DNA from: a virus | Reading direction: 5' to 3' (one strand) | Virus record (IMG/VR): IMGVR_UViG_3300045988_178965 | Location: 96,001-160,000 of that record | DNA: 64,000 nucleotides | Shown: piece after piece, positions 3,669 through 59,226 of the stretch | Position numbering within the stretch: the first letter of the stretch is position 1 | Layout of the letters: every line of letters begins with the position of its first letter | The notes under the pieces: model-generated | What the model saw: the letters and a program-made list of their open reading frames with translations, nothing else | The model's database searches: none | What the model was told of the DNA's origin: nothing | Translations under genes and position numbers: made by a program

Positions 3669-3696
3669 TAATTTGCCCTTATTATTATTATTAAAA

Positions 3697-3733
3697 TAAA
3701 AAAGAACCGACACATGTAAAACATATGCCGGTT
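3697..3733 (-). promoter_or_regulatory. GTGTCGG-type intergenic hairpin + U-tract
   Basis: Minus sense reads AACCGGCATATG-loop-CATGTGTCGGTT followed by CTTTTTT. Two G.U pairs exist only in the minus-sense RNA. It lies 38 nt upstream of the ATG at 3668. Confidence 0.6.
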
Positions 3734-3781
3734 TTAATTTAATACAAGTATTAAGCGGAATTAAACCGCACTTAAATTGTT

Positions 3782-41850: not shown

Positions 41851-41886
41851 CTTTATACCTTTCTAGGGTTAATTACTTACATCCAT

Positions 41887-41917
41887 GAAAAGACCGACAC
41901 TCAATCGAGTGCCGGTC
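41887..41917 (-). promoter_or_regulatory. GTGTCGG-type intergenic hairpin + U-tract
   Basis: Minus sense reads GACCGGCACTC-loop-GAGTGTCGGTC followed by TTTTC. It lies 43 nt upstream of the ATG at 41850. Confidence 0.6.
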
Positions 41918-41920
41918 AGC

Positions 41921-42040
41921 TTATTTTTCCTTCATTTTATCGATCCGATTTTGAATGGATTTCATTACCCATTTCAAACGGCCCGTAAGAAACTTTATCT
42001 TTGCGTAGCTATAGCTTCTTCTTCCTCTATTTGAACGCAT
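41921..42040 (-). CDS. small basic protein (39 aa)
   Basis: MRSNRGRRSYSYAKIKF...; the start lies 1 nt after the bfd-like stop. Below the ORF-track cutoff. Confidence 0.25.
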   Translation of the reverse strand: MRSNRGRRSYSYAKIKFLTGRLKWVMKSIQNRIDKMKEK

Positions 42041-42041
42041 T

Positions 42042-42221
42042 TTATTTCCCTTCCTTTGCTGCTTCTTTGTGCTTTGAAATCAATGAGCAAACCATTTCGT
42101 GACAACAGCCACAACAAGTAGTCGCGCCGGTCTCTTTTTGTATTGTTTCAAGTTCTGCACCATTAACAGCCATAGCGGTAATAGTTTTATCATTAATATT
42201 ATTGCAAATACAAATAACCAT
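42042..42221 (-). CDS. bfd: BFD-like [2Fe-2S]-binding domain protein (bacterioferritin-associated ferredoxin-like), 59 aa
   Basis: My own translation is MVICICNNINDKTITAMAVNGAELETIQKETGATTCCGCCHEMVCSLI... It matches the Bfd pattern C-x-C-N-x-[IV]-x-D-x-x-I ... C-G-x-C. Confidence 0.7.
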   Translation of the reverse strand: MVICICNNINDKTITAMAVNGAELETIQKETGATTCCGCCHEMVCSLISKHKEAAKEGK

Positions 42222-42250
42222 AAATAACCTTTCCTTAATTAATTATTAAC

Positions 42251-42286
42251 AAAAGAATTGGCCCCGACACCTTTCGATGCGGGGCC
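42251..42286 (-). promoter_or_regulatory. GTGTCGG-type hairpin + U-tract
   Basis: GGCCCCGCA-loop-TGTCGGGGCC followed by AATTCTTTTG. It lies 42 nt upstream of the bfd-like ATG. Confidence 0.55.
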
Positions 42287-42340
42287 TTTTCTATCACTAA
42301 TAAAGGAGTATTAGGGTGCCGTCTTTCCGTCGTCCCTGCG

Positions 42341-42369
42341 ATTGCAAACCGTCGCCTACAAGCTGTCAA
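42341..42369 (-). promoter_or_regulatory. sigma70-like promoter (TTGACA-17-TGCAAT) facing the bfd-like gene
   Basis: Read on the minus strand, TTGACA (42369-42364), a 17-nt spacer, then TGCAAT (42346-42341). Confidence 0.35.
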
Positions 42370-42718
42370 GAAAGGTATTATAGCAGGATTTTTCGGAGTC
42401 ATGGATGATCCTGAACCATGTGCATAAAACTTTATACACTTAATAATGGGGGGCCCCGATCCAAATACCTTATTGCCGAAAGGAGGTCAATAAGAAATAT
42501 GGTATTCGGTCTGCGGGGCGGGGAAAGGCTACAGGCGATACTGATATATCCGACAGTATATAAAAATAGTCTGATTTATCGCCTGCCACTTTGGGCATAT
42601 CGAGTAGTCAACACGAACAGAGCCACTGTTATTTAACGACTTACGATTAATGCGCCAAGTATTGTTCCTCCGGTCACTCCGACCAGAACACACTTGCCAC
42701 ACAAACTTGTTTTATTAA
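42370..42718 (-). ncRNA. structured ORF-free region (3'UTR or ncRNA)
   Basis: GC-richer than its surroundings. Long nested helices (CAGGCGATA/TATCGCCTG, CCGAATACC/GGTATTTGG, TTATTG/CAATAA) and an apical loop ACCUCCUUUCGG. Confidence 0.3.
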
Positions 42719-43102
42719 TCAGAAGGCATTTTCGCCATTCAAGAATACGCCGGTAATTTTAAATTCGCGTTTGCCAAATTCTTCGTCTTCGATTTCGATT
42801 GTGCCAACATCATAAATTGTATCAGATTCAGCAAGGCGGCGAATATGCGAAGGAAGTTCAGCAATACGTTTACCTTCTTTTGTCAGAAGAATATTACAAC
42901 CCAAATCTTTCAAGTCTTCGTCATCCATATTGGCAATAGACTTGATATCTTCGGAGGTTAAGACCATGCGGTCAACTTGGGCACATTCCAATTCTGCAAA
43001 TTCACGGAATTCTTTATCAGTTGGGGCTGAAAATGTCAGTTCCTGTGCAATGGCCAAACCAAGTTTAGCATATGCTTTATACAATACATTAGGTGATTTC
43101 AT
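42719..43102 (-). CDS. hypothetical protein
   Basis: 127-aa acidic ORF. Confidence 0.5.
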   Translation of the reverse strand: MKSPNVLYKAYAKLGLAIAQELTFSAPTDKEFREFAELECAQVDRMVLTSEDIKSIANMDDEDLKDLGCNILLTKEGKRIAELPSHIRRLAESDTIYDVGTIEIEDEEFGKREFKITGVFLNGENAF

Positions 43103-43119
43103 TGTTTAACCTTTAAAAT

Positions 43120-43584
43120 TTATTTTGATTTAGATTTCAGTTTATAAAACACATGCTTACCAATACGGTGCGGTTTAACAGCTCGTGGCGCTGGTCGTTT
43201 TCCATTAGAGGAAAAGAAAATAGCTCCCCGGGTATTGTCAGCATGATGTTTCGCCTTATGAGCTAAATAAACTTCTTGTGCAATTTTTTCAGTCTCTTTA
43301 TCGTAGCCGGTTTTGGAACGTAGCTTTTTATTACGATACCATTGAAACTGTCCACGTTGGGCAATAACACCATTTACCGTATTCGGAAATTCTTTGTGTT
43401 TTACACGATTCATGATTACGTGAGCAACTGCTTTCTTTCCTGCTATGGATTCGCCGCGAGCTTCGTTATGAATAGCAGTCGCTAAAGCTTTTACTTCGGA
43501 AGAAGCTGACTTCTGTTTATTCTCGGCTTTTACATTAAAACTTGCAGCCAGTAAAATAGCTACAATAAGAAATCGTTTATTCAT
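43120..43584 (-). CDS. secreted cell-wall hydrolase (SleB/CwlJ Hydrolase_2 family)
   Basis: Signal peptide MNKRFLIVAILLAASFNVKA, then LATAIHNEARGES..GKKAVAHVIMNRV.....FPNTV.GVI.QRGQF. Confidence 0.7.
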   Translation of the reverse strand: MNKRFLIVAILLAASFNVKAENKQKSASSEVKALATAIHNEARGESIAGKKAVAHVIMNRVKHKEFPNTVNGVIAQRGQFQWYRNKKLRSKTGYDKETEKIAQEVYLAHKAKHHADNTRGAIFFSSNGKRPAPRAVKPHRIGKHVFYKLKSKSK

Positions 43585-43765
43585 CTTTGGGCTCTCCATA
43601 TACAACAATATAGCTCCCACCTGAATGCTGCTCAAGAGCTACAGTCACATTGTTAAACTCATTCTTGATGTTATTTATAACAGTGATAAGTTCATCTGCA
43701 CTGTAATAAACATCTTCGGAAAGAAACTGTTCAAGGAGACCAATTTCTTTTGATTTATTAGGCAT
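43577..43765 (-). CDS. hypothetical small protein
   Basis: 62-aa ORF. Confidence 0.4.
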   Translation of the reverse strand: MPNKSKEIGLLEQFLSEDVYYSADELITVINNIKNEFNNVTVALEQHSGGSYIVVYGEPKDE

Positions 43766-43906
43766 AATAAGCCGCCTCTTATTGTTTGTAGATTTAAATC
43801 CCTACAAGATTATTTTAATTTTCTATTTAACGGAAGGCAAAAAGTGCTAATAATTTCCGTACTGATAATACAATTAAAAATAGCATAATTGCCTCCGTTA
43901 TATTAG

Positions 43907-44305
43907 TTACGAACCTTCTGCAATATCAATAATTGCAGATATTTCTTTCATGATGCGGACATAATACTTAAGCCGTCCAAGAAAGCGTTTTGTAGCTTCA
44001 CAATCAGGATAGATATTAGTAATAATATCGCTAACACTGTACAAACGAATATGATGTTCATATGCTTGATAATAATAATCAAGCAAAATCTTTTCATTGA
44101 TTCTCGTGTTTTCTTCAATATCACCTTTATGGCCGCAGATAATGCTAGGACGAATCAAGTCTTTAACCTTGATATCTTCCTTAATGCCAACTGCGCGTCT
44201 ATTTAACATTCTGATTTTATTGAATTTCATATCTCTGAGAAGCTCTTCAAATGAATGAATATGCTTAAAGAACTTCTCATTGAATGCACGATTTACAGAC
44301 TTCAT
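43907..44305 (-). CDS. hypothetical protein
   Basis: 132-aa ORF. Confidence 0.45.
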   Translation of the reverse strand: MKSVNRAFNEKFFKHIHSFEELLRDMKFNKIRMLNRRAVGIKEDIKVKDLIRPSIICGHKGDIEENTRINEKILLDYYYQAYEHHIRLYSVSDIITNIYPDCEATKRFLGRLKYYVRIMKEISAIIDIAEGS

Positions 44306-44652
44306 TACTCTGATGCCTTTAAATCAGGCAATTGTTCCAAAGCTGTAACCGCTTTTACAGCTTTCGCTTCTTTTGGTTTGGAAGCTTCAATTGCCTTATT
44401 CATGTGCTGAAACTGCATATCTTCATAGGCAGATTTTGTAATTGCACGGCACAAAACCTTTGGCTCTTTGCCAGGAACGAGGTCGTTTACACATTCTTCA
44501 TAAACGGCGCCACCTTTAGAATAGCTGAGCTGAATCCAATGGTCCGTATTCAAATAGATGCGTGATGGATCATCGATTTTGTTGCAGGCCGAGAGGCTAG
44601 AAATAGCAATAGCGGCTGCCAATACAGCGGATACTTTTTTATTTACTTGCAT
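44305..44652 (-). CDS. lipoprotein
   Basis: Signal peptide with lipobox (AISSLSAC). Confidence 0.6.
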   Translation of the reverse strand: MQVNKKVSAVLAAAIAISSLSACNKIDDPSRIYLNTDHWIQLSYSKGGAVYEECVNDLVPGKEPKVLCRAITKSAYEDMQFQHMNKAIEASKPKEAKAVKAVTALEQLPDLKASE

Positions 44653-44664
44653 AATTTACTCCAT

Positions 44665-45180
44665 TTAAAGTTGATTACGGTAATATTCTCTGACTTCCAT
44701 CAGAGCCTTACCAAGAAGATTGCGGCCACGCCAATTTCGACGGTCAAGGATTTCATTACTCATCCAATCCAATTTGACGCCCCAAATTGCATCATACGGC
44801 GAACCTTCAACCAATTCGAGGTTATTGGTCCGTAAAAGGATTTCTTTCAGTGTAGGATTTTGGAATTTGATTTTCAGAATATCAACCATAACTCCATAAC
44901 GCTTTTCGTCCCATACCTTAGGATCGAAATTTTGTACCGCCCGGCCTACCCTTTTGACTTCTGACGCTGATCTAGCCTGAACAATGAGTCTAATTTTGCT
45001 CTCATCGCCAAATGTAATAGCTTTCTCAATCATAAACGCCTGCTCAGCAGTCTTTACATTGTAGCCTTTATACACAAGTGGGCTAAAGTAAAAATTACTA
45101 AACGGTGCACCGCCGGTAAAGAACGTTACCATTTTATCAGTATAACGCATATTGTTTTTAAGTTGCACAATTTGCTCCAA
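44665..45180 (-). CDS. NADAR (YbiA/DUF1768) family protein
   Basis: FF.GG.PFSNFY......Y...EQAFM..KA......VKR.GR......W......VM...L..KF.QN..L...LL.T....LVEGSP.D..WG. Confidence 0.75.
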   Translation of the reverse strand: MEQIVQLKNNMRYTDKMVTFFTGGAPFSNFYFSPLVYKGYNVKTAEQAFMIEKAITFGDESKIRLIVQARSASEVKRVGRAVQNFDPKVWDEKRYGVMVDILKIKFQNPTLKEILLRTNNLELVEGSPYDAIWGVKLDWMSNEILDRRNWRGRNLLGKALMEVREYYRNQL

Positions 45181-45203
45181 TGTTTATTAATGAACGGCAA
45201 AGA

Positions 45204-45425
45204 CTATTGTTTCTTGTGCTTTCCTGTGATTAATAATCCTACTGCAGCAATACTGAAGATAGGGAACAATACTGGCCACATTAAACATCCTAGGAAAGCA
45301 AACAGTATAACCATAAACTTTTCAAAGGGTTCACTTCCAGATAAATCAATGTCTTTGACTCGTATCACAAAACATAGAGCCAAAAAGATTACGCAGCCAA
45401 TTAAAATGATAAACAATGGGTCCAT
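45204..45425 (-). CDS. small 2-TM membrane protein (paralog of 8258..8479)
   Basis: 73 aa with shared layout and motifs. Confidence 0.55.
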   Translation of the reverse strand: MDPLFIILIGCVIFLALCFVIRVKDIDLSGSEPFEKFMVILFAFLGCLMWPVLFPIFSIAAVGLLITGKHKKQ

Positions 45426-45475
45426 TTTGATCTCCTAAAAATTTAATATTCATTTTACCGACAATTTGCCGACAC

Positions 45476-45724
45476 TTAATCTCTTATGATTTTCTTAATT
45501 CCAAATACCAGTGGCTTAAATAAGCCATATGAAATGATCACAGTAAGTAATACCGGCCAAGCTACAGAAGCCAACATAGACAACCAGATATATTTTTCGA
45601 TCAGGTCTTCAACATCTTCGCAGCCTTCTTTATTCGCTAATCCATTTTTATAGGAAACAATAAGTATCCCAATGAAAACAACAAATAAAATAGCTACGAT
45701 CAGCAGATATATTTTTAAAGCCAT
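45476..45724 (-). CDS. small 2-TM membrane protein
   Basis: 82 aa with the same TM-loop-TM architecture. Confidence 0.5.
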   Translation of the reverse strand: MALKIYLLIVAILFVVFIGILIVSYKNGLANKEGCEDVEDLIEKYIWLSMLASVAWPVLLTVIISYGLFKPLVFGIKKIIRD

Positions 45725-45926
45725 TTTATGTACCTTATTTTAATCTCCGTTAATAATGAATGCCTGCGTTTATACTCCGCAGGCAAGAGTCAGACACATT
45801 CACAGGAGCAGGTCGTCATCCCAAGTCAGGAATAGCATTTCAGCTACTAGCCTTTGTGACTAAATCATCGGCTCCATTCAACATCTAGTGTTGAATCATA
45901 CTAGGAAGGAGCTTTTATTACTCCAT

Positions 45927-45959
45927 AAATAAACCGACACCAATATAATGGCGTCGGCT
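45927..45959 (-). promoter_or_regulatory. GTGTCGG-type hairpin + U-tract
   Basis: AGCCGACGC-loop-GTGTCGGTT followed by TATTTAT. Two G.U pairs form only in minus sense. A ~200-nt structured leader follows. Confidence 0.55.
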
Positions 45960-45971
45960 ATATTTAAGGTT

Positions 45972-46250
45972 TTAGTAAAGTGAGAATTTTTCGATCAAAT
46001 AGACCACAAACTTTCCAGTATGGATCGTTGCAATATGGCCTAAAATGACGGAAATAACAAACAATAGTACATTAAACGGCCCATTGTTTCTCAATTTGGA
46101 AAAAGCTTTGATGTTGAAAACGCTTTTATGCAAATTCGAAAGAATGAAACCGATATATACAGCCAGGAAAATAACATACAGTATGCCTGTGGGGTTATTC
46201 ACTACGGCATTGTAAATGAAATAATCCCATATATTTGTAAAAACAAACAT
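45972..46250 (-). CDS. membrane protein
   Basis: 92 aa with 3 TM helices. Confidence 0.45.
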   Translation of the reverse strand: MFVFTNIWDYFIYNAVVNNPTGILYVIFLAVYIGFILSNLHKSVFNIKAFSKLRNNGPFNVLLFVISVILGHIATIHTGKFVVYLIEKFSLY

Positions 46251-46271
46251 GATAAATCCTTATTAGTTGTC

Positions 46272-46436
46272 TTATGACCTAATTTTAGCAATTAAATCGT
46301 TGACTAAACAGAAAACAATAACCGGCAAATTCAGAATAAAGGCAATAAGAACATAAAAAATAGTACACACGATAATTACTAAAAATACCGGTATAAACGC
46401 CAATAATTGAGCAAAGCCAAGCAGGAAGTTCATCAT
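46272..46436 (-). CDS. small membrane protein
   Basis: Trimmed to the ATG at 46436, downstream of the preceding stop. Confidence 0.4.
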   Translation of the reverse strand: MMNFLLGFAQLLAFIPVFLVIIVCTIFYVLIAFILNLPVIVFCLVNDLIAKIRS

Positions 46437-46441
46437 AGGGG

Positions 46442-46900
46442 CTATTCCTTCACAATAATACCATTTCGGCAAATATTTATTTCTACGCCTTCTACAATTT
46501 TAGGTGTATAAATGCCTACATACAGTCGACCTTGGAAGTTTCGTACCCAAGATACAATATATTTCGTTTTAGGAGACATAAACGTATACCGAATATAAGG
46601 ATCACCATTATTATCCGACACTCTATCAATATGCAACGGGACTTTAAAATTCTGCTCAAGATCAGATAAGAACCAATTCAGATTGCCATAAAGAGTTTTG
46701 GCATCATAGTTCTTAGAAGCATATTCCATAATAGAATCAAAAATAGGGTTGCCGCGGAGAGATTTGATATAATCCGCATTGGACAATTCATCAATAAAAT
46801 TCTCAATAGCGGAAATATATTCTTTACCTACACCAGAGCTCCAGTCAATAGGCTTAGAATTAGGGTCGAACATGGTAGAAAACAAGTTTAAAGGAATCAT
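46442..46900 (-). CDS. hypothetical protein
   Basis: 152-aa ORF. Confidence 0.5.
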   Translation of the reverse strand: MIPLNLFSTMFDPNSKPIDWSSGVGKEYISAIENFIDELSNADYIKSLRGNPIFDSIMEYASKNYDAKTLYGNLNWFLSDLEQNFKVPLHIDRVSDNNGDPYIRYTFMSPKTKYIVSWVRNFQGRLYVGIYTPKIVEGVEINICRNGIIVKE

Positions 46901-46952
46901 TTAAAGCCTCCATAGGGCCTTATATAAAGACCCTATAACTTATTATTTGTAA

Positions 46953-47228
46953 TTACTGCAAATGAACTTCTTCGCCATCACATTCTACACACTCTTCGTC
47001 ATTACTACCAAACGAAGAGAATAATGATGTAACAGCAGGTGTAATAATCCAGATACAGCCAATAAATATTGCAAGTCCAGTAACTAAGGATGCAAATGTA
47101 GAGTTGTAGATAAAGCAAATTAAGGAAATACCTAATACTGCGCAAACCTTAAATATTGAAAGGCGCCCCTGTTGATTGTAGAACAGACGCGCCGCAATAA
47201 GATTGAAACGAGATTTCAAAAAGCCCAT
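46953..47228 (-). CDS. membrane protein
   Basis: 91 aa with 2 TM helices and an acidic Cys-containing tail. Confidence 0.45.
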   Translation of the reverse strand: MGFLKSRFNLIAARLFYNQQGRLSIFKVCAVLGISLICFIYNSTFASLVTGLAIFIGCIWIITPAVTSLFSSFGSNDEECVECDGEEVHLQ

Positions 47229-47366
47229 AATATAGCTCCAAATGTAATAACTGTAATCAATTTTAGCTATTTAAATACAAATAACAATAGCAAAAAATGA
47301 TATAAATATAAATGCCCGCGTAATAAGCCTTTAAATAATAGCACTTTACAACGGGCCTTTTAATTA

Positions 47367-47708
47367 TTAGATATATTCGTATTTAGAATACAATTTCTTG
47401 AACATATCACCAATCGGCCATTGAGCAGGATGATAGACCCATTTCTTATTTTCATACTTTTTATAGCCAATCAGTTTCTTCATAATGAACAAAGAACAGC
47501 CGAAAATAAGGCCGGTAGCAGCACCAATCACAAAACCAGACATTGTTCCCGAAACGCCACAAGCAAGGCCAATTAACAAGGAAAAACAAAGGTCTACGTA
47601 AGCTTCATAGCCTAAAACCTTATACAAAAGCTCCACATTAGTCTTGGCCAAGATAGACAATATAGCCAAAGAAGTAATAGCGGAGCCAAACAATATCATA
47701 GAAATCAT
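47367..47708 (-). CDS. membrane protein
   Basis: Trimmed to the ATG at 47708 (GGAG RBS). The annotated extension overlaps the intergenic motif. Confidence 0.45.
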   Translation of the reverse strand: MISMILFGSAITSLAILSILAKTNVELLYKVLGYEAYVDLCFSLLIGLACGVSGTMSGFVIGAATGLIFGCSLFIMKKLIGYKKYENKKWVYHPAQWPIGDMFKKLYSKYEYI

Positions 47709-47734
47709 GATAACTCCATATATAATATTTACCA

Positions 47735-47757
47735 CAAAAAACCGACACAATATCGAT
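47735..47757 (-). promoter_or_regulatory. GTGTCGG-type element
   Basis: ATCGATA-TTG-TGTCGGT followed by TTTTTG. It lies 33 nt upstream of the ATG at 47708. Confidence 0.5.
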
Positions 47758-47822
47758 TTTATAAATATTCAAAAACTAGTAGCGTAAGAGCTAAAAGAAG
47801 GGCCCGCCGGCCCCTTTACCTT

Positions 47823-48500
47823 TTATTGGCGTAAAAACCAAAAATAAAAAACTTCAAAAACAAAGATAGATGCAAAAATTAAACATCCATAAAAGCAAAT
47901 ACAAGCATAAAAAATACAACAACCAAAAAATAAACAACAAACCAAAACAAAATAGAATAAACCATAATAAACAAATACACTCCCAAATATAAAATAGAAC
48001 TTATACATCTACATAATACAAAATAGAATCATGTACAAGTATAAATACTAATACATCTGTACTTCAATACAATACAGATAAACTTAAATACGAACTGCAT
48101 TACAATGTACTCTAATATAGACTACATTATATGAGTACGGTCTACATTATTGTACAAGCAGAGACTAAATTATACTGAACTCTTCAATACGGACTGCATT
48201 ACCTATATTGGCTAAATATACATCTTAATACCTATTTATAGGTCTGTGCACCTACAGGTACATTTTGACACCTGTATAGCCTACAAATAGACTCTGTGCA
48301 CCTGGTAGTCCAGTCCATTAAAACCCTTGCAAATACTAGCCTTACGGCTATTGGTTGCATTCTTATTATTCTTAGTATACTTATATCTCTTATGTATTGT
48401 ATTAGTATTATTTATGCTTTTAATCAATACAAGGACGCGCCCGTCCTGCCTATATTAACCGTCTATTGACGTCTATATTGACTGCTTATTAGCACTTTTA
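47823..48500. repeat. ORF-free strand-asymmetric region with degenerate direct repeats (possible origin or ncRNA locus)
   Basis: The plus strand is nearly G-free from ~47823 to 48050. Repeats follow: CTTCAATAC x2, CTGCATTAC x2, CTACATTAT x2 and CTGTGCACCT x2. Confidence 0.5.
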
Positions 48501-48505
48501 CCACA

Positions 48506-48537
48506 AAATAACCGACACTTTTCAGACGTCGGTATCC
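48506..48537 (-). promoter_or_regulatory. GTGTCGG-type hairpin + U-tract
   Basis: ACCGACGT-loop-AGTGTCGGT followed by TATTTTG. Confidence 0.55.
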
Positions 48538-48946
48538 GCTAAAGGAGAAAATGATACTTTAGGAATTATTCTCATTTAGGCCTGTTTTCTGCCTAAAACA
48601 GTCCATTTTTGCTGATATACACTGTATTTCTGCAAGAATTTAGCCATTTTACTACTGATTTTACTATATCATTTATTTCTGAACGAAAAACCTGTATCTA
48701 TATAAATCAACAACTTAGATAACTTCGCTCCCTTAGCCATATAAAACAAAATTAATCACTCATTTATTCTTGAACGATATCAACAATTCAACCATTCAAA
48801 AGAATAAAATCATAAGAAAGGTACCGACACAACACGTCAACCAGTCAAAAAAGACAAAAATACTGGTGCACAAATACATGCACACCAGCATTCAATGGAC
48901 TATAGATTGATAGGGGCTCGCTTACGCTCGCCCGTATCAGACTCTA

Positions 48947-50335
48947 TTAGAACGGACCGTCTTCGTCGTCTGCTTGAGGTTTGGTTTCAGTAGGTTGGGC
49001 TTGACCACGACGTGGACGTTTGGTTTCTTTGGTTTGAGCAGGTTTCTCGCCTTCTACTTTAGCAGTATCAGAAAAGATATCTACATCACCCAAGTCCAGA
49101 CCGTCAACGTTCAGAGCGTCCAAATCAACGTCTGCGGCAACAGTAGTAGAGCCGGTTTCATTACGGTTGATGATATAACCGTCCATAGTAACGCGTGCTG
49201 TAACTACCCATGGTTGACCAGTTTCGTCGTCTTCACGTGGGGTGCGGCTTTCGAAACCGAGGACGTTATTCTCGGTGAACATGATTTCATCGGCATTGCT
49301 GCTTACGAAATCGAATGCTTCGGCGCGAGTTTGTCCACGGCCATTGTTGCCATTGCTGTACATAACTGCACGTACAGTAACGTCATTACCACGGCTGTCT
49401 TTGAAGTTAACGAACTTACGGCAATATTGAGTCGGATTGGTACCTTCTGTTACTTGAACACCAGCCAGATAGCCATCATGCAATTCGTCTTGCTCCAGGT
49501 TTGTCATTTCAGCTTGACCAGTAATAGTCAGACAGAAGTTAGGGGCAATACGGCCATATGCACGTGGGGTAGTGCGGACATCAATTTGTTTGCCGTTGCT
49601 GGTGGTTTTGTAACTTGCTGCTGCAATCGGTACAATGCAAGGGCTCAGGCCATTTGCACCAACGTAGATTACAGTAGAAGTCGCAATTGCACCTGCGTCA
49701 ACCAAGCGTTTGATTTCGGCTTTGTAACCTGCAACGATTTTGGCCATCATTTCAGACAGCTGTTGTTCGTTATAGGTTGCGCGTTCACCGTTCTTTTCAT
49801 AGGCGGTAACGATGCCTTTATCGTGGCTGACGAACGCAGAGCCGGACAGCAATGCTTCATAACCTTTGGTCAGGCTCAAAGCCTTCAACGCCAGGCCATT
49901 TGCCTTCTCATACCATTCGGAACCAAATGCTGGACCTACAGGAACAGGGAAGTTTGCCAATTTGCCATTTTGAATGCTCAAACCATTGAAGCCTGCATCC
50001 AGGAATTCCATAGCATTTGCATTGCTATTACGGACAGACGCAACGATTTGGTTAGTAGTCATACCTTCAACGTATTGCACACCGTCGTCGGCATTAGTAG
50101 CAACCCAGCAGGCACGGCCATTACTACGGCTCATTGGGGTATTTGCAATCATGTGCACCAGTTTGTACACGGAAATGCGGTAACCCAGGGCTTCATTCTC
50201 GTCTTGGCGAGCGTCCAATACATAGAATGTACGGCGAGATGCTGCCATTGGTGTTGCAACCTGACCGCTAACGCTGTGGAATTTGTTACGGCCAGTGTTC
50301 AGGGCGCCAGTGTCGATTTGATTCAGTTCGTTCAT
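48947..50335 (-). CDS. abundant-looking protein with an SSB-like acidic C-terminal tip (function uncertain)
   Basis: 462 aa. Strong codon bias, shown by a stop-free antisense frame. C-terminus ...KPQADDEDGPF resembles the SSB/gp2.5 acidic tails (DDDIPF, DGDF). Confidence 0.5.
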   Translation of the reverse strand: MNELNQIDTGALNTGRNKFHSVSGQVATPMAASRRTFYVLDARQDENEALGYRISVYKLVHMIANTPMSRSNGRACWVATNADDGVQYVEGMTTNQIVASVRNSNANAMEFLDAGFNGLSIQNGKLANFPVPVGPAFGSEWYEKANGLALKALSLTKGYEALLSGSAFVSHDKGIVTAYEKNGERATYNEQQLSEMMAKIVAGYKAEIKRLVDAGAIATSTVIYVGANGLSPCIVPIAAASYKTTSNGKQIDVRTTPRAYGRIAPNFCLTITGQAEMTNLEQDELHDGYLAGVQVTEGTNPTQYCRKFVNFKDSRGNDVTVRAVMYSNGNNGRGQTRAEAFDFVSSNADEIMFTENNVLGFESRTPREDDETGQPWVVTARVTMDGYIINRNETGSTTVAADVDLDALNVDGLDLGDVDIFSDTAKVEGEKPAQTKETKRPRRGQAQPTETKPQADDEDGPF

Positions 50336-50435
50336 GATGATTTTTCCTTTTTAGGTTGATTGAAATAAAAGATTCTTTCGGTCAAGATTCAGACCATAGA
50401 GCTGTTTTGGATTGAGGTCAGCTCTGTTACCTCAT

Positions 50436-50470
50436 AAAAATACCGACACGACAATTTCTGCCGCGCCGAT
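50436..50470 (-). promoter_or_regulatory. GTGTCGG-type hairpin + U-tract
   Basis: ATCGGCGCG-loop-CGTGTCGGT followed by ATTTTTAT. Three G.U pairs form only in minus sense. It sits directly after the stop at 50477. Confidence 0.6.
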
Positions 50471-50476
50471 ATCTTA

Positions 50477-50773
50477 TTATCTCACCTTAATATTTCGCAA
50501 ATAGGAATCTGCAAAGTTTAGTGAGCGTTCAATGTAAGCTACACTAGGATTATTTAGCGCAGTTACATTATTCAGGCTATCAGACAATATCAAGGCACCT
50601 GGATTAGACTGTTTAGCGAAAAGAATTGCTTCCAGTTCTGCCGTATTGTTATCTGATGCAAGAATAGTTTTATGACCATTTACTGCCATATTCAGTGAGC
50701 AGTAACCAATTTTCCATCGATTGCCGCCCACTAAACGAGCGTCGCAGTAAATCTTATCAGGCTGCGGCCGCAT
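50477..50773 (-). CDS. mini RNase H-like protein
   Basis: IYCDA...AELEAILFA...ILSDS gives D/E/D spacing. ATG at 50773 with a GAGGAAG RBS. Confidence 0.5.
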   Translation of the reverse strand: MRPQPDKIYCDARLVGGNRWKIGYCSLNMAVNGHKTILASDNNTAELEAILFAKQSNPGALILSDSLNNVTALNNPSVAYIERSLNFADSYLRNIKVR

Positions 50774-51734
50774 TTGCTTCCTCAATATGTTCTTTCATTG
50801 CACGCATAATTACACCTTCTTTAGACTTGCGTCCAAAGTCTTTGGTAGTTGCTGCGTCCAAGATAGACAGCATTTTACCTAAGGTATAACCGGCAATATC
50901 ACGAACTGTGCCAAGAATCTTAATTACACCGCCATAGACGTACATAACCAAACCTTTGGCCAAGTCCAATACGAACGAGCCGCCAGTTTTACAGCCAACC
51001 CAAATCTTATGGGTCCAGCCTTCTTTGTCTTCATCGTCAGTGTTCTTGACAATATCAGACAGCAGTTTGCTGAATTTTGCGGATGTTTCTTCGTCAACAC
51101 CCTCCAATCCTTCATAGAATTGGTTTGCCGCTTCATTCAACACGGCCTTTTCGGCGGTCAGTGTAGAAACACCAGTTGCGTCAGTAGTACGGTTGTATTT
51201 AACCAACGCAGTGAGGTATTCTCCCACATTCTTCAACAGCTCTGGGGTCACTTCGTCACCCTCAAATGCTAACATTTCGGACTTAATGTCCTCCACGGCG
51301 ACATTGAACTTGTCGATGTTAGCGAATTTGGCTTCTGCACCGGCGATAATTTGGGCGATTGTTTGGGTTTGGGTATTTTGAGTCATGATTTCATTTCCTT
51401 TAGCTAAAGTTTCAGATTGGGTTTCAGTTTTCACTTCGGTTTTGGACAATTCTTCTGCCCGTTTGAATACAGACAGAGTAACAGGCCCAATTTGCTCCGG
51501 ATTTTTGAGCTCGGTTCCAGAGATGGTGACCGTAACACCATTATTCTCAACAAAGCCTTTATGTGTGGCTTCACCTAAGACCGACATCCATAGAACAGCG
51601 GTCTCTGTAATTTTCTTTTCAACGGCATTTTTATGAACGCCGGTAAGTTTTTGATATTGAAGCTCCAATTTATGAAGCTCACCTTGCAATTGAAGCAGGA
51701 CTTTCTTTGCCTGCTTTTGGTTTTTGATTTCCAT
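50757..51734 (-). CDS. acidic coiled-coil protein
   Basis: Trimmed to the ATG at 51734 (GGAG RBS). The annotated 5' end lies inside the intergenic hairpin. Confidence 0.5.
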   Translation of the reverse strand: MEIKNQKQAKKVLLQLQGELHKLELQYQKLTGVHKNAVEKKITETAVLWMSVLGEATHKGFVENNGVTVTISGTELKNPEQIGPVTLSVFKRAEELSKTEVKTETQSETLAKGNEIMTQNTQTQTIAQIIAGAEAKFANIDKFNVAVEDIKSEMLAFEGDEVTPELLKNVGEYLTALVKYNRTTDATGVSTLTAEKAVLNEAANQFYEGLEGVDEETSAKFSKLLSDIVKNTDDEDKEGWTHKIWVGCKTGGSFVLDLAKGLVMYVYGGVIKILGTVRDIAGYTLGKMLSILDAATTKDFGRKSKEGVIMRAMKEHIEEANAAAA

Positions 51735-51766
51735 TTCGGACTCCAATAAAGCAACATGCCTTTCCA

Positions 51767-51800
51767 CAAAAGAACCGACACCAAAACTAATCGGTGCCGG
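51767..51800 (-). promoter_or_regulatory. GTGTCGG-type hairpin + U-tract
   Basis: GCCGGCACC-loop-GGTGTCGGT followed by TCTTTTG. It lies 40 nt upstream of the ATG at 51734. Confidence 0.6.
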
Positions 51801-51810
51801 CAACTTTTAT

Positions 51811-52107
51811 TCAGATGAGCTCAAAGTAAGGGTCATAAGTAGTACCCTTATGGACATATTTTCCATCCTCGAGCTCATATACTGTAACGTTCTGCCCCAT
51901 AGGAAGAGAAGTGTCACAAACATAGATTTTAGTAAAACCCAAAGAGCTCAAACTTTCGTCCATCTTTTTGTCAGACGAATGTTCGAACATGTCGATCCAC
52001 TCTGCTTCTAATTTGCCGACGCTGGATTTCAATACGACAGTTTTGCCGTATGCCCAGTGGCGGATTTGTTTCAGAAAACGGTTGATAGAAGGGTTCTTTT
52101 TAGCCAT
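51811..52107 (-). CDS. hypothetical protein
   Basis: ATG at 52107 preceded by GGAGATAATC. Confidence 0.5.
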   Translation of the reverse strand: MAKKNPSINRFLKQIRHWAYGKTVVLKSSVGKLEAEWIDMFEHSSDKKMDESLSSLGFTKIYVCDTSLPMGQNVTVYELEDGKYVHKGTTYDPYFELI

Positions 52108-52144
52108 GATTATCTCCATAAAAGGCTGTTAAAATGTTTACCGC

Positions 52145-52172
52145 AAAAGAACCGACACTAATTATATCGGTT
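52145..52172 (-). promoter_or_regulatory. GTGTCGG-type hairpin + U-tract
   Basis: AACCGATAT-loop-AGTGTCGGTT followed by CTTTTG. Confidence 0.6.
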
Positions 52173-52220
52173 CAGATACTAGGGTTTAAACCAAGTTACT
52201 ATTGGCCTTAATTAAAAAAC

Positions 52221-52251
52221 AAAATGACCGACACCTCCTCAGATGCCGGCC
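52221..52251 (-). promoter_or_regulatory. GTGTCGG-type hairpin + U-tract
   Basis: GGCCGGCA-loop-TGTCGGTC followed by ATTTTGTTTTTT. It is in tandem with the previous element. Confidence 0.6.
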
Positions 52252-52259
52252 ACTACAAA

Positions 52260-52625
52260 TTATTCAATACCAATCAGGTCTTTTGCGAGCTCATTCAGCT
52301 CTTTGTCAGATTCATTCATACGAACCATGAATAGACGTAAAGCTGGTGCAACTGTCAATACAAAGTTCATGATTGTATTGAACTTAGAGGTCCAAACGCG
52401 GATTGCTTTGCACGCCCAATCTTTGTTAATTTCGATTGAGACTTCAGCGCTACCATCTTCATTACCGGATTTCTCCCAATACAGGGTATCCTTGTTGATT
52501 TTGGTAGGATTTTTGCCGCTAATGCCTACCATGCTGTTGAATTCGCCCTCACGAGCAAAATACTCTGCGCCGGCTTCTTGCAAGGCTTTAACTTCTTTCT
52601 TAGCAAATTCGATTTTGATTTTCAT
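52260..52625 (-). CDS. hypothetical protein
   Basis: 121-aa ORF. Confidence 0.5.
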   Translation of the reverse strand: MKIKIEFAKKEVKALQEAGAEYFAREGEFNSMVGISGKNPTKINKDTLYWEKSGNEDGSAEVSIEINKDWACKAIRVWTSKFNTIMNFVLTVAPALRLFMVRMNESDKELNELAKDLIGIE

Positions 52626-52664
52626 ACAATTTCCTTTATATTAGTGATTGGGGTTATTCCCATA

Positions 52665-52690
52665 AAAAGACCGACACAAAAATATCGGCC
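52665..52690 (-). promoter_or_regulatory. GTGTCGG-type hairpin + U-tract
   Basis: GGCCGATAT-TTTT-GTGTCGGTC followed by TTTTTAT. Confidence 0.6.
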
Positions 52691-52697
52691 CCTTAGG

Positions 52698-53012
52698 TTA
52701 CAAAATTTCTACCTCAACATCATGAGCTAGAAACGGCATATTCTGTTTGGCAATCAAGATTGGATTTTGGCCTTCTGTCACATAAATCACATCAGACTCT
52801 GTTCGGCCATCAATTAATTCATATGTCACATAATATTGCCAGTCTTGACCAATATGGAATGTTGCAACAACTTCACCATTAGAATAGGCCTTTACCATTG
52901 CGGCCTCATCCTCTGAGAACTCTATCTCTTTCTTGATCGCATCGATGTCGAGGCTGGAAACTTCATATTCCTCGTTAAAGAGATTACTTCCAAATACCTT
53001 AATGCTATACAT
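52698..53012 (-). CDS. hypothetical protein
   Basis: 104-aa ORF. Confidence 0.5.
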   Translation of the reverse strand: MYSIKVFGSNLFNEEYEVSSLDIDAIKKEIEFSEDEAAMVKAYSNGEVVATFHIGQDWQYYVTYELIDGRTESDVIYVTEGQNPILIAKQNMPFLAHDVEVEIL

Positions 53013-53252
53013 TTTGGATTACTCCATTTATTTATATCGTTAAAATACCGACACAAAAACCGTTGATGTTATGCAACCTATATTCAATACGGAGTTTATA
53101 AATGTCCTAGCGTATTTATATGCGTGGTTGCAACATGTTGATACCCTGTTACCTGTCCAGCGGGTGAAAAAAGGTGGGCCGCCACTGTATTGTAAAAACA
53201 ACAAAGTAGGGCCCAAAGTTTTTATGGAGGTAAAAAGGATTCAAATGTTTCC

Positions 53253-53296
53253 AAAAAGAAACCGATACCAAGTGCAACAACGCTCAAGGTATCGGC
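53253..53296 (-). promoter_or_regulatory. variant hairpin (GGTATCGGTTTCTTTTT)
   Basis: Perfect 8-bp CCGATACC/GGTATCGG stem followed by TTTCTTTTT, within a 310-nt ORF-free gap. Confidence 0.5.
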
Positions 53297-53326
53297 AAAA
53301 CTTACAGGGAAATCATATATGTCATA

Positions 53327-53358
53327 AAATAACCGACATCCTTTTACAGATGCCGGCC
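53327..53358 (-). promoter_or_regulatory. GTGTCGG-type hairpin (GATGTCGGTT variant)
   Basis: GGCCGGCATC-loop-GATGTCGGTT followed by ATTTTAT, directly after the stop at 53369. Confidence 0.55.
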
Positions 53359-53368
53359 ATTGTACTGT

Positions 53369-53572
53369 TCAGATAAACGAAAACTCTTCGAATCTAGAAA
53401 ACCTCAAAGAATTATCATCTTGAATCTCAAAGATTACCATATCATCATCTTCTGAATGACTTACAATTACATCCAAGAAGTGCTTCCATATGGAAACCTC
53501 TTTATTGTTTCCTAAATCGGCCCTAAGTTCGTCAATAGAGCCGTAGGCCAATTTAAATTCGAAAGATACCAT
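53369..53572 (-). CDS. hypothetical small protein
   Basis: Trimmed to the ATG at 53572 (GGAGG RBS, TGATG overlap). Confidence 0.45.
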   Translation of the reverse strand: MVSFEFKLAYGSIDELRADLGNNKEVSIWKHFLDVIVSHSEDDDMVIFEIQDDNSLRFSRFEEFSFI

Positions 53573-53751
53573 CAAACCTCCAGCCCTTTGACTTCGATAT
53601 CGACGGCACCAACATCTTCCATACATGTGGAGATGCAAACTTGCTCATATACATCATCCCAGTCCATAGGGACTTCATACGAACGAAGGAAATCCTTACG
53701 GCTGCCATCTTCCATTGTAAATGTAACCAAAAAATCTGTATATTTTTTCAT
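53572..53751 (-). CDS. hypothetical small protein
   Basis: Trimmed to the ATG at 53751 (GGAGG RBS). Confidence 0.45.
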   Translation of the reverse strand: MKKYTDFLVTFTMEDGSRKDFLRSYEVPMDWDDVYEQVCISTCMEDVGAVDIEVKGLEV

Positions 53752-53781
53752 GATGAAACCTCCATTAAAATTATTATCAGT

Positions 53782-53810
53782 AAAAGACCGACACATTCAC
53801 GCATCGGTCC
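53782..53810 (-). promoter_or_regulatory. GTGTCGG-type hairpin + U-tract
   Basis: GACCGATGC-loop-GTGTCGGTC followed by TTTTAC. It lies 36 nt upstream of the ATG at 53751. Confidence 0.6.
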
Positions 53811-53819
53811 GAAATTCTA

Positions 53820-54116
53820 TCAGAACGGGTGATCTTCACTCGCGTTCTCTTTATGAAACTTCTCTGCATATTGAGAAGCCCACTTATTAGGATTCATGCA
53901 ACCTTTACCTGGGGTTGCAAACTCATGAACGGCGGAGCAGTAAACTGCCATACCATCCTGAGTCGGAATCCTACGGAACCAGCCGGGGATGTCCTTTTCA
54001 GGCATCTCAACGCCGACTGGCATAATGAAACTTGCGCCACGATACGCAGCGCTTGCAACATCGCCGGCACAAAGTTGTGCAAACGGTGAATCTGGGGTAA
54101 TGACGAATTGTCGCAT
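53820..54116 (-). CDS. hypothetical protein
   Basis: 98-aa ORF with a GGAGGG RBS. Confidence 0.5.
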   Translation of the reverse strand: MRQFVITPDSPFAQLCAGDVASAAYRGASFIMPVGVEMPEKDIPGWFRRIPTQDGMAVYCSAVHEFATPGKGCMNPNKWASQYAEKFHKENASEDHPF

Positions 54117-54133
54117 ACCCTACCCTCCGAGAA

Positions 54134-54182
54134 AGAAAAGAAAACGGTAGGACGAATCCTACCACCGTTGAAAGACCGACAC
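54134..54182 (-). terminator. GTGTCGGTCTTTC motif followed by a canonical strong terminator hairpin
   Basis: GGTAGGA-TTCG-TCCTACC stem (extended by AACGG/CCGTT) followed by TTTTCTTTTCTTTC, between the RNAP-like gene 2 and the next gene. Confidence 0.6.
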
Positions 54183-54272
54183 CAGAACCGCTCTACGTGA
54201 ATACAGCCCCATATCGCTACGGAGCCGTATCCAGCGAGCAGTAACCTTTGCCAGTTTTTATTGGGTACGGAG

Positions 54273-58287: not shown

Positions 58288-58438
58288 AATGATTTCCTTT
58301 CAGAAGAAATAAATAATAAACAAAATAATGAGACAGAATTATCTCATTTATAATAACACTCTGTATTGAATGCCATTATAGATAAGATAAAAGGATGTGC
58401 AGGACTGATATCCCACACGCCCTTAAACATTATTATTA

Positions 58439-58603
58439 TCAGAGATCACACTCTCCTTTTTGTTGCTTACAGTATCTGTCTACCGATGTGATAGATGTTT
58501 TCTTTACCACATTCTCAGCGGCGTCTTTGGCACCACTGAACATGAAAGAATAAAAAGAAAAGCAGAAGAATACAGCCGTGATTGCAATGATAAAGTTTTT
58601 CAT
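58439..58603 (-). CDS. small secreted/membrane Cys-containing protein (54 aa, below the ORF-track cutoff)
   Basis: MKNFIIAITAVFFCFSFYSF... with a C-terminal DRYCKQQKGECDL, similar in layout to 58120..58287. Confidence 0.35.
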   Translation of the reverse strand: MKNFIIAITAVFFCFSFYSFMFSGAKDAAENVVKKTSITSVDRYCKQQKGECDL

Positions 58604-59117
58604 GGTTAAGTCCTTTCTTAGACTAAAGAGTAAAATAAAAGATGTAGATGAGAGCAGTCCAGTTCACCCCAGGGGGCAAATTCCGGACATACCCCCATCC
58701 ACAGGAATATCATTAATAGACACCAGGTGATCCCACTCGTTTTATCTCATATTTTCCCTCATATTTACCCAGTCAGGTAATATTTTGTAGGCTTAGCTAC
58801 CCACACGCATTACATCCACATTCCTCATTCATATATCACTCAATATTTTTAAAATATATTCACACACCAATTACACTCACATCTTCACACACCTCAAGTT
58901 TCACACCTTATCATCAACTCATTCTCATTTTTCTTCCAACCAACCCCCAATCAGTCTTTGCCTATCGGCAAAATGATGGGTCCGCCGCGCCGGGCCATTC
59001 TGTGTTTTGGGTCAATCAACCCCCTTGTTTGCCCCAGGGGGCTCAGATCAATGGGGTGGGTTTGTTTTTGGGGGCGCCAGCCATTTTAAAATTTTTCTAT
59101 TTTCAAGGGACAGTTAG

Positions 59118-59146: not shown

Positions 59147-59226
59147 TATTTCTACAGGGAGGGTCGCTCCCTCTTTCTGTCTATTGATCAAGATTTTTTA
59201 AAAAGCTTTTTAGAAAGTGATTTGTT

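Follow-up and report, generated by a model that had tools for sequence, protein, structure and literature searches.

A repeated gene-junction element in a large uncultivated phage as a candidate fusion of intrinsic terminator and phage-class-specific promoter

What is the role of a short sequence element that recurs, always in the same orientation, between the small genes of a large phage? The question is raised by positions 41,887 to 54,182 of a 64,000-nucleotide stretch of DNA (hereafter the window), which corresponds to positions 96,001 to 160,000 of the IMG/VR virus record IMGVR_UViG_3300045988_178965. The phage is novel, uncultivated and ~180 kb in size, and nearly all of its genes up to about 58 kb of the window lie on the minus strand. 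An earlier note on this DNA had described the element by its plus-strand core CCGACAC and had named three options for it without choosing among them, namely a termination or pause site, a processing or stability site, and a hairpin promoter of the N4 vRNAP kind. The phage-specific, strand-specific and intergenic nature of the signal was borne out; the pure forms of these options are disfavoured by the evidence below. We propose a composite gene-junction cassette, which to our mind has an even chance of being correct. The element would end transcription of the upstream gene as an intrinsic terminator or attenuator and start that of the downstream gene as a phage-class-specific promoter.

Gene sense in the following is the minus strand of the window, and element positions are counted from G1, the first base of GTGTCGG. 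The core CCGACAC was found 18 times on the plus strand and not once on the minus strand (1.85 expected; maximum among shuffles, 6). All 17 starts of CCGACAC and the one CCGACAT (53333) that had been reported are exact to the nucleotide, and two coding-region matches can be added, a bare CCGACAC at 46615 inside an open reading frame (ORF) and a CCGACAT at 51581. With up to three mismatches allowed, a 14-mer gave 25 matches compared with 6.2 expected, and the full motif has a strand ratio of 14:0. Under an over-inclusive ORF mask, 12 of the 18 cores are intergenic, compared with 15.5% expected (P = 1.4e-6). The statement that all located copies are intergenic is upheld as a strong enrichment, but this mask leaves 6 of the 18 outside; coding and intergenic frequencies, like those of the two strands, are clearly unequal. 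Sixteen of the 18 cores fall into a block of small ORFs at 41.8-54.3 kb, which covers 12.5 kb or 19.5% of the window (P = 5e-10). An uptake signal or REP-like repeat was ruled out, as the copies keep strictly to one strand, to intergenic positions and to a single block. The Pasteurellaceae uptake signal sequence is AAGTGCGGT, to which GTGTCGGT is loosely similar.

We built a profile from the copies and searched it back with nhmmer, which yielded 99 unique copies, drawn from the window and from 17 related loci. The gene-sense consensus of these copies is t-GTGTCGGT-yn-TTTT-a-T-G-R-n-A, with a length of ~20 nt. The box at +1 to +8 is nearly invariant, and the T-tract at +11 to +14 has T in 83-90%. 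T16 is kept in 82 of the 99 copies, and G17 and R18 in 95 each, so that G17 is as well conserved as the box itself. Position +20 is A or G in 91 copies (A in 67) and C in none, and the 5'-arm region from -17 to -9 is low in information. A conserved arm plus U-tract, which had been taken as the whole signal, is thus an incomplete description, as the near-invariant T16 G17 R18 n A20 lies 3' of the U-tract. Within the window the profile matches copy 3713 and the block at 41.9-54.2 kb and nothing else; at 811 and 42264, the core is present and the profile is not matched. Among the looser variants listed before, the one at 53262 is a true variant (GTATCGGT), but the other three fail: 7285 and 33004 are ordinary terminators with stems unrelated to the element and no TGR, and 57718 shares the T-tract part alone (GGTTCTTTTAT).

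In most window copies, G1 comes 20-31 nt after the preceding stop codon, and 40-52 nt separate it from the next ATG in 11 of the 17. In the 62 of the 99 copies that have a Shine-Dalgarno (SD) sequence and an ATG within 75 nt, the median from box to ATG is 50 nt. The earlier value of 32-46 nt to the start codon agrees with ours, as its reference point was the opposite end of the core. The copies in the window are the following, with hairpin energies in kcal/mol and E-values of the profile match.

54163..54182, minus strand: copy 1, GTGTCGGTCTTTCAACGGTG, without box hairpin; first box after RNA-polymerase (RNAP)-like gene 1; E = 0.031.
53775..53820, minus strand: hairpin copy (GGACCGATGC...GTGTCGGTC) with T-tract and CTGA; -12.9 kcal/mol; 43 nt to the ATG at 53751.
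53320..53365, minus strand: variant ATGTCGGT with hairpin and TTATTTTATGA; -15.6; compensating CAT in the 5' arm; first of a tandem pair.
53249..53305, minus strand: variant GTATCGGT (the 53262 mentioned above) with long-loop hairpin GCCGATACC...GGTATCGGT; second of the tandem pair; E = 1.6.
53035..53054, minus strand: hairpin-less GTGTCGGTATTTTAACGATA; -1.8; 42 nt to the ATG at 53012; stemless in 7 relatives too.
52658..52700, minus strand: hairpin copy (GGCCGATAT...GTGTCGGTC) with TTTTTATGGGAA; -11.2; best profile match, E = 1.5e-5.
52215..52256, minus strand: hairpin copy (GGCCGGCATC...GGTGTCGGTC); -16.7; first of a tandem pair.
52139..52180, minus strand: hairpin copy (GAACCGATAT...GTGTCGGTTC) with TTTTGCGGTAA; -9.7; 51 nt to the ATG; homology breakpoint.
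51762..51803, minus strand: hairpin copy (GCCGGCACC...GGTGTCGGT) with TCTTTTGTGGAAA, then the 5'-proximal hairpin AAGGCAtgtTGCTTT; -18.3; 47 nt to the ATG at 51734.
50430..50475, minus strand: hairpin copy (ATCGGCGCGGC...GTCGTGTCGGTAT) with TTTTTATGAGG; -17.6; then a 114-nt structured leader with covarying stems.
48811..48830, minus strand: hairpin-less, weaker copy GTGTCGGTACCTTTCTTATG; E = 0.5; ordinary terminator upstream at 48858-48893.
48499..48535, minus strand: hairpin copy (ACCGACGTC...GTGTCGGT) with TATTTTGTGGTAA; -12.6.
47729..47748, minus strand: copy without a proper stem, GTGTCGGTTTTTTGTGGTAA; -4.9; 40 nt to the ATG at 47708; ordinary terminator upstream at 47798-47815.
45921..45962, minus strand: hairpin copy (AGCCGACGCC...GGTGTCGGTT) with TATTTATGGAG, then hairpin GGAGtaataaaaGCTCC; -18.2.
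45456..45475, minus strand: degenerate, hairpin-less copy GTGTCGGCAAATTGTCGGTA right after a stop codon; E = 8.5.
41881..41920, minus strand: hairpin copy (GACCGGCACTC...GAGTGTCGGTC) with TTTTCATGGAT; -19.0; 50 nt upstream of the ATG of RNAP-like gene 2.
3694..3735, minus strand: outlying hairpin copy (AACCGGCATATG...CATGTGTCGGTT) with a long T-tract; -16.6; E = 0.045; 46 nt upstream of an ATG.

At about 13 of 20 core-containing sites in the window, the sense RNA forms hairpins of -10 to -19 kcal/mol, and every one of them is weaker when folded in the plus sense. Both example hairpins given earlier (GCCGGCACC/GGTGTCGGT and ATCGGCGCG/CGTGTCGGT) were found, and both are more stable in the minus-sense RNA. 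In 67 of the 99 copies, at least 6 of the 8 box bases are paired at a ΔG of -7 or lower, with the box as the 3' arm; the other 32 retain the box and TGR without such a hairpin. The core is therefore the 3' arm of a hairpin in most copies, as had been claimed, but about a third are hairpin-less. A clean 8-nt arm is present in 58 copies, compared with 12.6% in shuffled controls, and their stem pairs comprise 329 Watson-Crick pairs, 123 G.U pairs (~27%) and 12 mismatches. The arm bases opposite C5, G6 and G7 are fixed as CCG, and the remaining arm positions toggle by transitions between Watson-Crick and wobble pairing. In a formal covariation count over 39 distinct arm/box combinations from both clades (see below), for which the arms had been picked by best pairing, 96.8% of the cells are paired. 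Both sides are changed in 19 cells, compared with 5.2 in shuffles (none of 500 shuffles reaches 19), and these changes include a CG to UA switch between the clades at the pair with box position 7. The hairpin is selected in the sense transcript, and the earlier proposal to this effect is confirmed by the pair counts and the compensatory clade switch.

The 5' arm is variable (consensus RCCGRYRY) and its partner GUGUCGGU is fixed. Stems measure 8-11 bp and loops 4-7 nt or more, and the hairpins start directly after stop codons. Stem, U-tract and position behind the stop codon together make up, as far as sequence can tell, the anatomy of an intrinsic terminator, and the element copies are the top matches in a generic terminator scan. 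Concerted evolution alone was rejected as the cause of the fixed box, as loops and 5' arms are diverse and homogenisation would have hit both.

The pairing pattern bears on an N4-type hairpin promoter, in which the polymerase would recognise an extruded DNA hairpin. Such a reading would fit the position of the hairpin immediately upstream of the putative start and a phage that encodes its own polymerases. N4 vRNAP, a T7-like enzyme, reads a hairpin of the template strand with a stem of 5-7 bp and a loop of 3 nt. Here, however, stems and loops are larger, the polymerases are of the two-barrel type, the G.U pairs turn into A.C mismatches on the template strand, folding is without exception weaker in the plus sense and 32 of the 99 copies have no hairpin. 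We consider the N4 option very improbable. A phage repressor operator similar to the stoperators of Cluster A mycobacteriophages (asymmetric, orientation-biased sites which block elongation) deserves hardly more credence. It would match an asymmetric intergenic site in many copies that is strictly co-oriented with transcription, but the RNA-level stem selection and the U-tract would be left unexplained, the copies are confined to one 12.5 kb block, and neither a repressor nor an integrase was seen in the window.

The hairpin-less copies allow the stem and the linear sequence to be viewed separately. Copies 53054, 47748 and 54182 are conserved without a stem across relatives. The frequencies of G17 and R18 are 0.96 and 0.96 in hairpin copies and 0.97 and 0.97 in hairpin-less ones. 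The frequency of T in the T-tract, in contrast, is 0.85-0.94 with and 0.75-0.84 without a hairpin, as is expected if the T-tract doubles as a U-tract in the stem copies alone. The hairpin-less boxes 47748 and 48830 are located 30-50 nt downstream of ordinary terminators with unrelated stems (47815-47798 and 48893-48858). Hence, terminator and box appear as separable modules that are fused in most copies. As T16-G17-R18-A20 is not needed by terminators and is equally kept without a hairpin, we interpret it as part of a linear promoter-type signal which the hairpin overlaps. This points to a function other than a pure termination, pause or processing site.

For an RNA processing or stability site, a sequence-specific endoribonuclease would cut polycistronic transcripts near the T-tract and TGR. 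The 3' hairpins would then protect the upstream mRNA and the downstream mRNA would gain a new 5' end, comparable to T7 RNase III sites. Stems that are selected in the RNA sense, an element at nearly every gene junction and short hairpins that often follow G17 would suit this model. However, a third of the copies are stemless with the sequence kept, and a protein that reads the duplex would not tolerate toggling between G-C and G.U at four positions with one strand invariant. Nor is an RNase gene evident beside the block, and we regard processing as quite unlikely.

More weight, although it is still an unlikely solution, goes to a pure sequence-specific terminator or pause site for a phage RNAP, of the T7 class II type or the 26-nt type of phage P23-45, with the promoters located elsewhere. 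Box, U-tract and TGR would stop the phage enzyme, and the hairpin would additionally stop the host enzyme. A U-tract follows the conserved sequence, and G17 lies ~8-9 nt past the stem, where release would occur. T7 class II signals work by sequence, and the hairpin-less copies could do likewise. Also, box 54182, right after a polymerase gene, has a second terminator-like hairpin behind it. This model is opposed by the 17 copies in 12.5 kb, before nearly every gene, with no other promoter-like motif between them. Distal genes, including that of RNAP-like protein 2, would be unexpressed unless read-through were high, the two hairpin-less boxes behind independent terminators would be redundant, and the tight spacing to the start codon is a property of promoters and leaders.

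If a terminator-like structure precedes almost every gene, the element itself should have to restart transcription. The gap between T-tract and SD sequence is 25-35 nt and too short to hold a promoter of its own. At 41-58 kb, sigma-70-like sites show no enrichment (46 compared with 47.2 expected), and alignments of TTGACA/TATAAT to the profile gave wrong spacing or poor matches, so a sigma-70 promoter was discarded. A Bacteroidota-type -7 element (TAnnTTTG) was ruled out by the position counts and by the strong Shine-Dalgarno usage. The element itself is an asymmetric motif of ~20 bp, co-oriented with the genes and at a constrained distance from the start codon, as is typical of phage-RNAP promoters. 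In many copies a compact hairpin starts at +17 to +21, and its orthologues covary (GAGG...CCTC to GGAG...CTCC), which is compatible with a stabilising hairpin at the 5' end of the transcript.

The bases beyond the T-tract could also be read as a promoter for host RNAP that is redirected by a phage factor, similar to the appropriation of sigma by MotA/AsiA in T4. In this layout, GTGTCGGT would serve as the activator box (about -30 to -23) and T16-G17 as an extended -10 TG followed by a weak TAnnnT. With TG at -15/-14, the box comes to lie at -30 to -23 and A20 becomes the -11 A (67 of 99), and some copies indeed read TGATAATAAT or TGGTAAATAT. The phage also has T4-like early functions, e.g., rIIA, and stem-loops with a Mot box (PmSLs) exist in phage nt-1. 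On the other hand, the -10-like positions are poorly kept (T+19 in 38 of 99 copies, T+24/+25 in 31-42), the well-conserved copy 51781 (TGTGGAAAGGCA) has no TAnnnT at all, and the sister clade has TGATTAA, without A at hexamer position 2. In MotA promoters, the spacing between box and -10 is 11-13 bp; the 10 bp found here fall short of this. We therefore rate sigma appropriation as unlikely, with some weight left to it.

Which polymerase could read the element? Two large proteins flank the block, and both had been suspected to be RNAP-like:

54273..57686, minus strand: RNAP-like protein 1, 1137 aa from an SD-preceded ATG; invariant DDADGD and SFHHAKGVV; heads the block.
38410..41850, minus strand: RNAP-like protein 2, 1146 aa; SHTGLKGV and SDIDGD; box 41900 upstream.

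Both contain DxDGD and, about 450 residues ahead of it, S-x-H-x-x-K-G-V. Scans against Pfam and PHROGs and phmmer and profile searches against the PDB gave no match for either protein. The structure model of protein 2 is confident (pLDDT 84.4, pTM 0.79). Its best matches in a fold search of the PDB are the second-largest subunits of cellular RNAPs (beta/Rpb2, E from 2e-6). Next come beta' chains and QDE-1, a two-barrel enzyme made of a single chain. Viral structural matches include crAss-like polymerase proteins, a tail-fused polymerase, subunits of NCLDV and poxviruses and a P23-45 protein; the closest is an uncharacterised protein of Acinetobacter phage ME3 (E = 2e-45). Protein 2 is thus predicted with confidence to have a two-barrel RNA polymerase fold. 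The homology between the families of proteins 1 and 2 spans 283 columns around DxDGD (hhalign 95.7%, E = 9e-9), and hence the phage is predicted to encode a pair of paralogous two-barrel RNA-polymerase-like proteins, which bears out the earlier suspicion.

The protein 1 family is very narrow, with 81 homologues at 71% identity or more and five remote homologues among 1.84 billion representatives; even at 18% identity, both DxDGD and the lysine stay invariant. The protein 2 family is more diverse. All homologues that carry a source name are labelled 'hypothetical protein'. Judged by protein 2, Metrivirus ME3 is the closest relative in culture; its structural genes resemble those of phage 0305phi8-36. 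In ME3 (vB_AbaM_ME3, L056, NC_041884.1 222114-226849), the homologue of protein 2 is annotated as hypothetical, and an endonuclease insertion splits it into gp152 and gp154. ME3 further carries a hypothetical gp187 of ~1180 aa and a LEF-5-like gp218.

Next, we turn to the relatives of the phage. When the block was compared with GenBank phages by megablast, no match was returned. In IMG/VR, pattern scanning retrieved about ten contigs of 107-186 kb, several of them from human-microbiome samples. They are syntenic with 38.6-63.7 kb of the window (nucleotide identity 67-87%), and their copies of the element are dense and strand-biased. A sister clade (clade B: L050, L054 and L055) was found via homologues, L050 by protein 2 and L054 and L055 by protein 1; L054 and L050 overlap, the former with its 3' end and the latter with its 5' end. 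Proteins 1 and 2 of clade B are 26% and 46% identical to those of the window. Its element consists of a 5' arm GTCGRCAC, a loop, GTGTCGA, a T-tract and then TGA. Clade A has GTGTCGG...TTTTATGR and clade B GTGTCGA...TTTTTGATTAA, at equal spacing of box and TGR; such fixed spacing across clades is predicted by a single recognition unit. T16, G17 and A18 are kept in 15, 14 and 13 of 18 clade B copies, the usual form being TGATTAA, and the box change from G7 to A7 is paired with C to T in the 5' arm. The strand bias is 9:1 per locus. As in the window, the first box stands behind the protein 1 gene and does not have the canonical stem.

The element is absent in phages in which protein 2 is 27-29% identical; these have ordinary terminators and a separate repeated motif TTCTTGAAGTAAGAC instead. 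This motif is intergenic in L053 and L051 (e.g., L053 5780-5893), lies ~20 nt past ordinary terminators and ~35 nt ahead of start codons, and may be the promoter class of that lineage; L053 has 14 forward and 3 reverse copies of TTCTTGAA. The element is absent in ME3 as well. An ME3 motif, AAAACTCTTTTATG, was dropped as a candidate for a shared core promoter, as it occurs 4 times in 235 kb. The element thus appears to track the lineage of the polymerases, a correlation over two clades.

The relatives also reveal where cassettes are exchanged. We compared 51.7-54.3 kb of the window with L004, L047 and L019, and by our own count a box is no more than about 30 nt away from 14 of 16 breakpoints of cassette insertions or replacements. 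The homology to all three relatives sets in again exactly at box 52158, that to L004 and L019 stops 7 nt into box 53054, and extra cassettes in relatives are bordered by two copies of the box. With respect to RNA processing, these breakpoints are neutral. They recall the PeSLs and PmSLs (promoter-early and promoter-middle stem-loops) of T4-like myoviruses, in which a promoter overlaps a terminator stem-loop (Arbiol et al. 2010, PMC2839356; Comeau et al. 2014, PMC4122927). Like PeSLs, the element is a repeated intergenic terminator stem-loop with a promoter (here a predicted one) amid small ORFan genes, co-oriented with them, and is a breakpoint of cassette insertion, deletion and replacement between close relatives. 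PeSLs, however, have a near-consensus sigma-70 -35/-10 (or a Mot box and -10) and variably placed stems of G/C runs. Here, a single asymmetric sequence of 20 nt provides the same 8 bases as 3' arm and has no -35 and no well-conserved -10, and it is probably read by a phage polymerase. In its mode of action the element resembles a PeSL, but the sigma-70 feature that defines PeSLs is lacking; the element is a variant of the composite idea and not a member of the family.

The proposed terminator-promoter cassette would work as follows. The transcript of the upstream gene enters the element, where in about two thirds of the copies the 5' arm would pair with the fixed GUGUCGGU, and the UUUU tract would complete a terminator or attenuator. 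The same DNA would act as a linear duplex promoter of ~20 bp. Relative to its start site, GTGTCGGT at about -16 to -9 would be the specificity block, TTTTAT at -6 to -1 the melting region and G-R-n-A positions +1 to +4. Transcription should start at or beside G17 (G17/R18) and give leaders of ~25-35 nt, which often would open with a small hairpin. A fixed 3' arm and a free 5' arm are expected if the former is read as sequence and the latter needs pairing alone; the promoter sequence would hold the 3' arm, and the 5' arm would merely pair and drift by transitions via G.U. The reader is probably phage-encoded and most likely protein 1, which heads the block without a box upstream of its own gene. 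The class it would serve would take in the boxed gene of protein 2, and a polymerase cascade as in Thermus phage P23-45 may result. The repeated element would double as a recombination site for cassette swapping, like PeSLs.

Several observations weigh against this proposal. Box 54182 is followed by a separate covarying hairpin and T-tract at 54143-54166, i.e., a terminator-like structure would stand at the very 5' end of the transcript; orthologues keep the box, and the hairpin varies (GGTAGGA/GACAGG/GGAGAG). The outlying copy 3713 has no TGR. A stretch of 3.4 kb inside the block (42.3-45.4 kb) is free of the element despite intergenic gaps of ~126 and ~141 nt. The folding excess over shuffles downstream of G17 is modest (mean z = -0.7), and the argument from 5' hairpins is accordingly weak. 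The polymerase identity of protein 1 comes from its motifs and its paralogy with protein 2, as it has no Pfam, PHROGs or PDB match, and its AlphaFold model from a shallow alignment has a pLDDT of 38.8. Finally, a conserved terminator motif of 26 nt is reported for the virion polymerase of P23-45 (PMC10770324); a conserved sequence at a termination site thus need not imply a promoter.

A further variant would let termination and initiation be one event: one and the same two-barrel polymerase would stop in the U-tract and begin a new transcript at G17, 1-3 nt downstream, while staying on the template. We consider such a stop-start junction, which resembles the gene-end/gene-start signals of mononegaviruses, distinctly improbable. 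If true, it would provide graded expression cassette by cassette and account for terminator and promoter being fused within 20 nt.

The composite cassette can be compared with three further systems. The promoters of T7-type single-subunit RNAPs span -17 to +6, with an upstream specificity region, an AT-rich melting region and a G start. The element shares with them an 8-bp specificity block, a 2-bp spacer, AT-rich TTTTAT, G-R, a size of ~20 bp and one-base changes between lineages; it differs in the polymerase family, which is two-barrel here, and in that its start site is putative. With intrinsic terminators it has in common a GC-rich RNA stem-loop right after the stop codon and the U-rich tract that follows; however, its 3' arm is fixed, bases beyond the U-tract are conserved and a third of the copies are without a stem. 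P23-45 has two two-barrel RNAPs, vRNAP and nvRNAP, each with its own promoter motif (PMC10770324). The two phages share paralogous single-chain two-barrel polymerases and a conserved, non-host-like motif upstream of an early block that includes the second polymerase gene. The motif sequences are unrelated, and no sequence similarity between the present proteins and solved polymerases could be detected; the passages on P23-45 considered here make no mention of an overlap of the promoter-like motif with an intrinsic terminator.

Individual copies have additional features nearby. The leader at 50335-50432 (minus strand), within the 114 nt between box 50449 and a gene of 462 aa, is conserved, and its stems covary among relatives (GAGG/CCTC to GGAG/CTCC; GGTC/GACC to GGCC/GGCC); it may be a regulatory 5' untranslated region. 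At 47830-48950 (minus strand), ~1.1 kb contain boxes 48830 and 48518, two ordinary terminators and no ORFs other than weak short ones without ribosome-binding sites. This region may encode small RNAs transcribed from the boxes. A conserved CTCCGTAnnGAnTATrGG is located upstream of the hairpin-less boxes 54182 (54190-54232) and 53054 (53060-53100), and in clade B a CTCCGTA stretch is found behind the stop codon of the homologue of protein 1 (L054 3901-3930).

The rest of the window contains genes for rIIA, NAMPT, PRPP synthetase, DNA ligase and a Ro60-like protein and at least 12 tRNAs. With regard to a T4-like (Straboviridae) affiliation, rIIA, ligase, NAMPT and a tRNA block are present, and the window has no structural genes. 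Four regions outside the block stand out. Firstly, a full-length Rfam match to HOLDH RNA (RF02997) lies at 63168-63532 (plus strand; 374.6 bits compared with a gathering threshold of 319.4), beside the strand-switch region. HOLDH is a large structured RNA without an assigned function, found here in a phage genome; a literature search on HOLDH gave unrelated word matches only. Secondly, two tRNA-like Rfam matches that are unusually long (121 nt), at 19137-19257 and 19416-19536 (minus strand), which were not called by ARAGORN, are immediately downstream of the Ro60/TROVE-vWA gene at 19743-21338 (minus strand). Bacterial Y RNAs (YrlA) have a tRNA-like module and adjoin the Ro60 gene; by analogy, the pair may be Y-RNA-like partners of phage origin. 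Thirdly, ~0.9 kb at 58300-59230 are non-coding and coincide with a switch in gene orientation and GC skew. They contain GT-rich repeats (GGTGTGTGAA...) and GC-rich blocks (CCCGGCGCGGCGGACCC), and the long non-coding stretch of L050 and L054 has a comparable GC-rich block, ACGGCGGGCGCTCC; the region may be an origin, a genome end or an immediate-early control region. Fourthly, a YadA-like protein of the trimeric-autotransporter type, with head repeats, stalk and membrane anchor, is encoded at 33719-35512 (minus strand) and kept in L050 (18023-19816). Such cargo is unusual and hints at a Gram-negative (diderm) host.

If confirmed, the element would be the first promoter class for a previously unannotated family of single-chain two-barrel RNAPs, which occurs in widespread phages of ~170-190 kb, some of them from human-microbiome samples. 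The proposal is directly testable, as the element is defined to 20 nt, two enzymes are candidates and the sister clade supplies a natural specificity variant: clades A and B (G7 compared with A7, plus differences past the T-tract) provide a ready pair of polymerase-promoter specificities, and such pairs could become orthogonal expression parts. The 20-nt profile offers a means to annotate transcription units and early-gene cassettes in these uncultivated genomes. Confirmation would also extend the PeSL idea, an insulating terminator-promoter that serves as a recombination handle, beyond T4-like phages and sigma-70.

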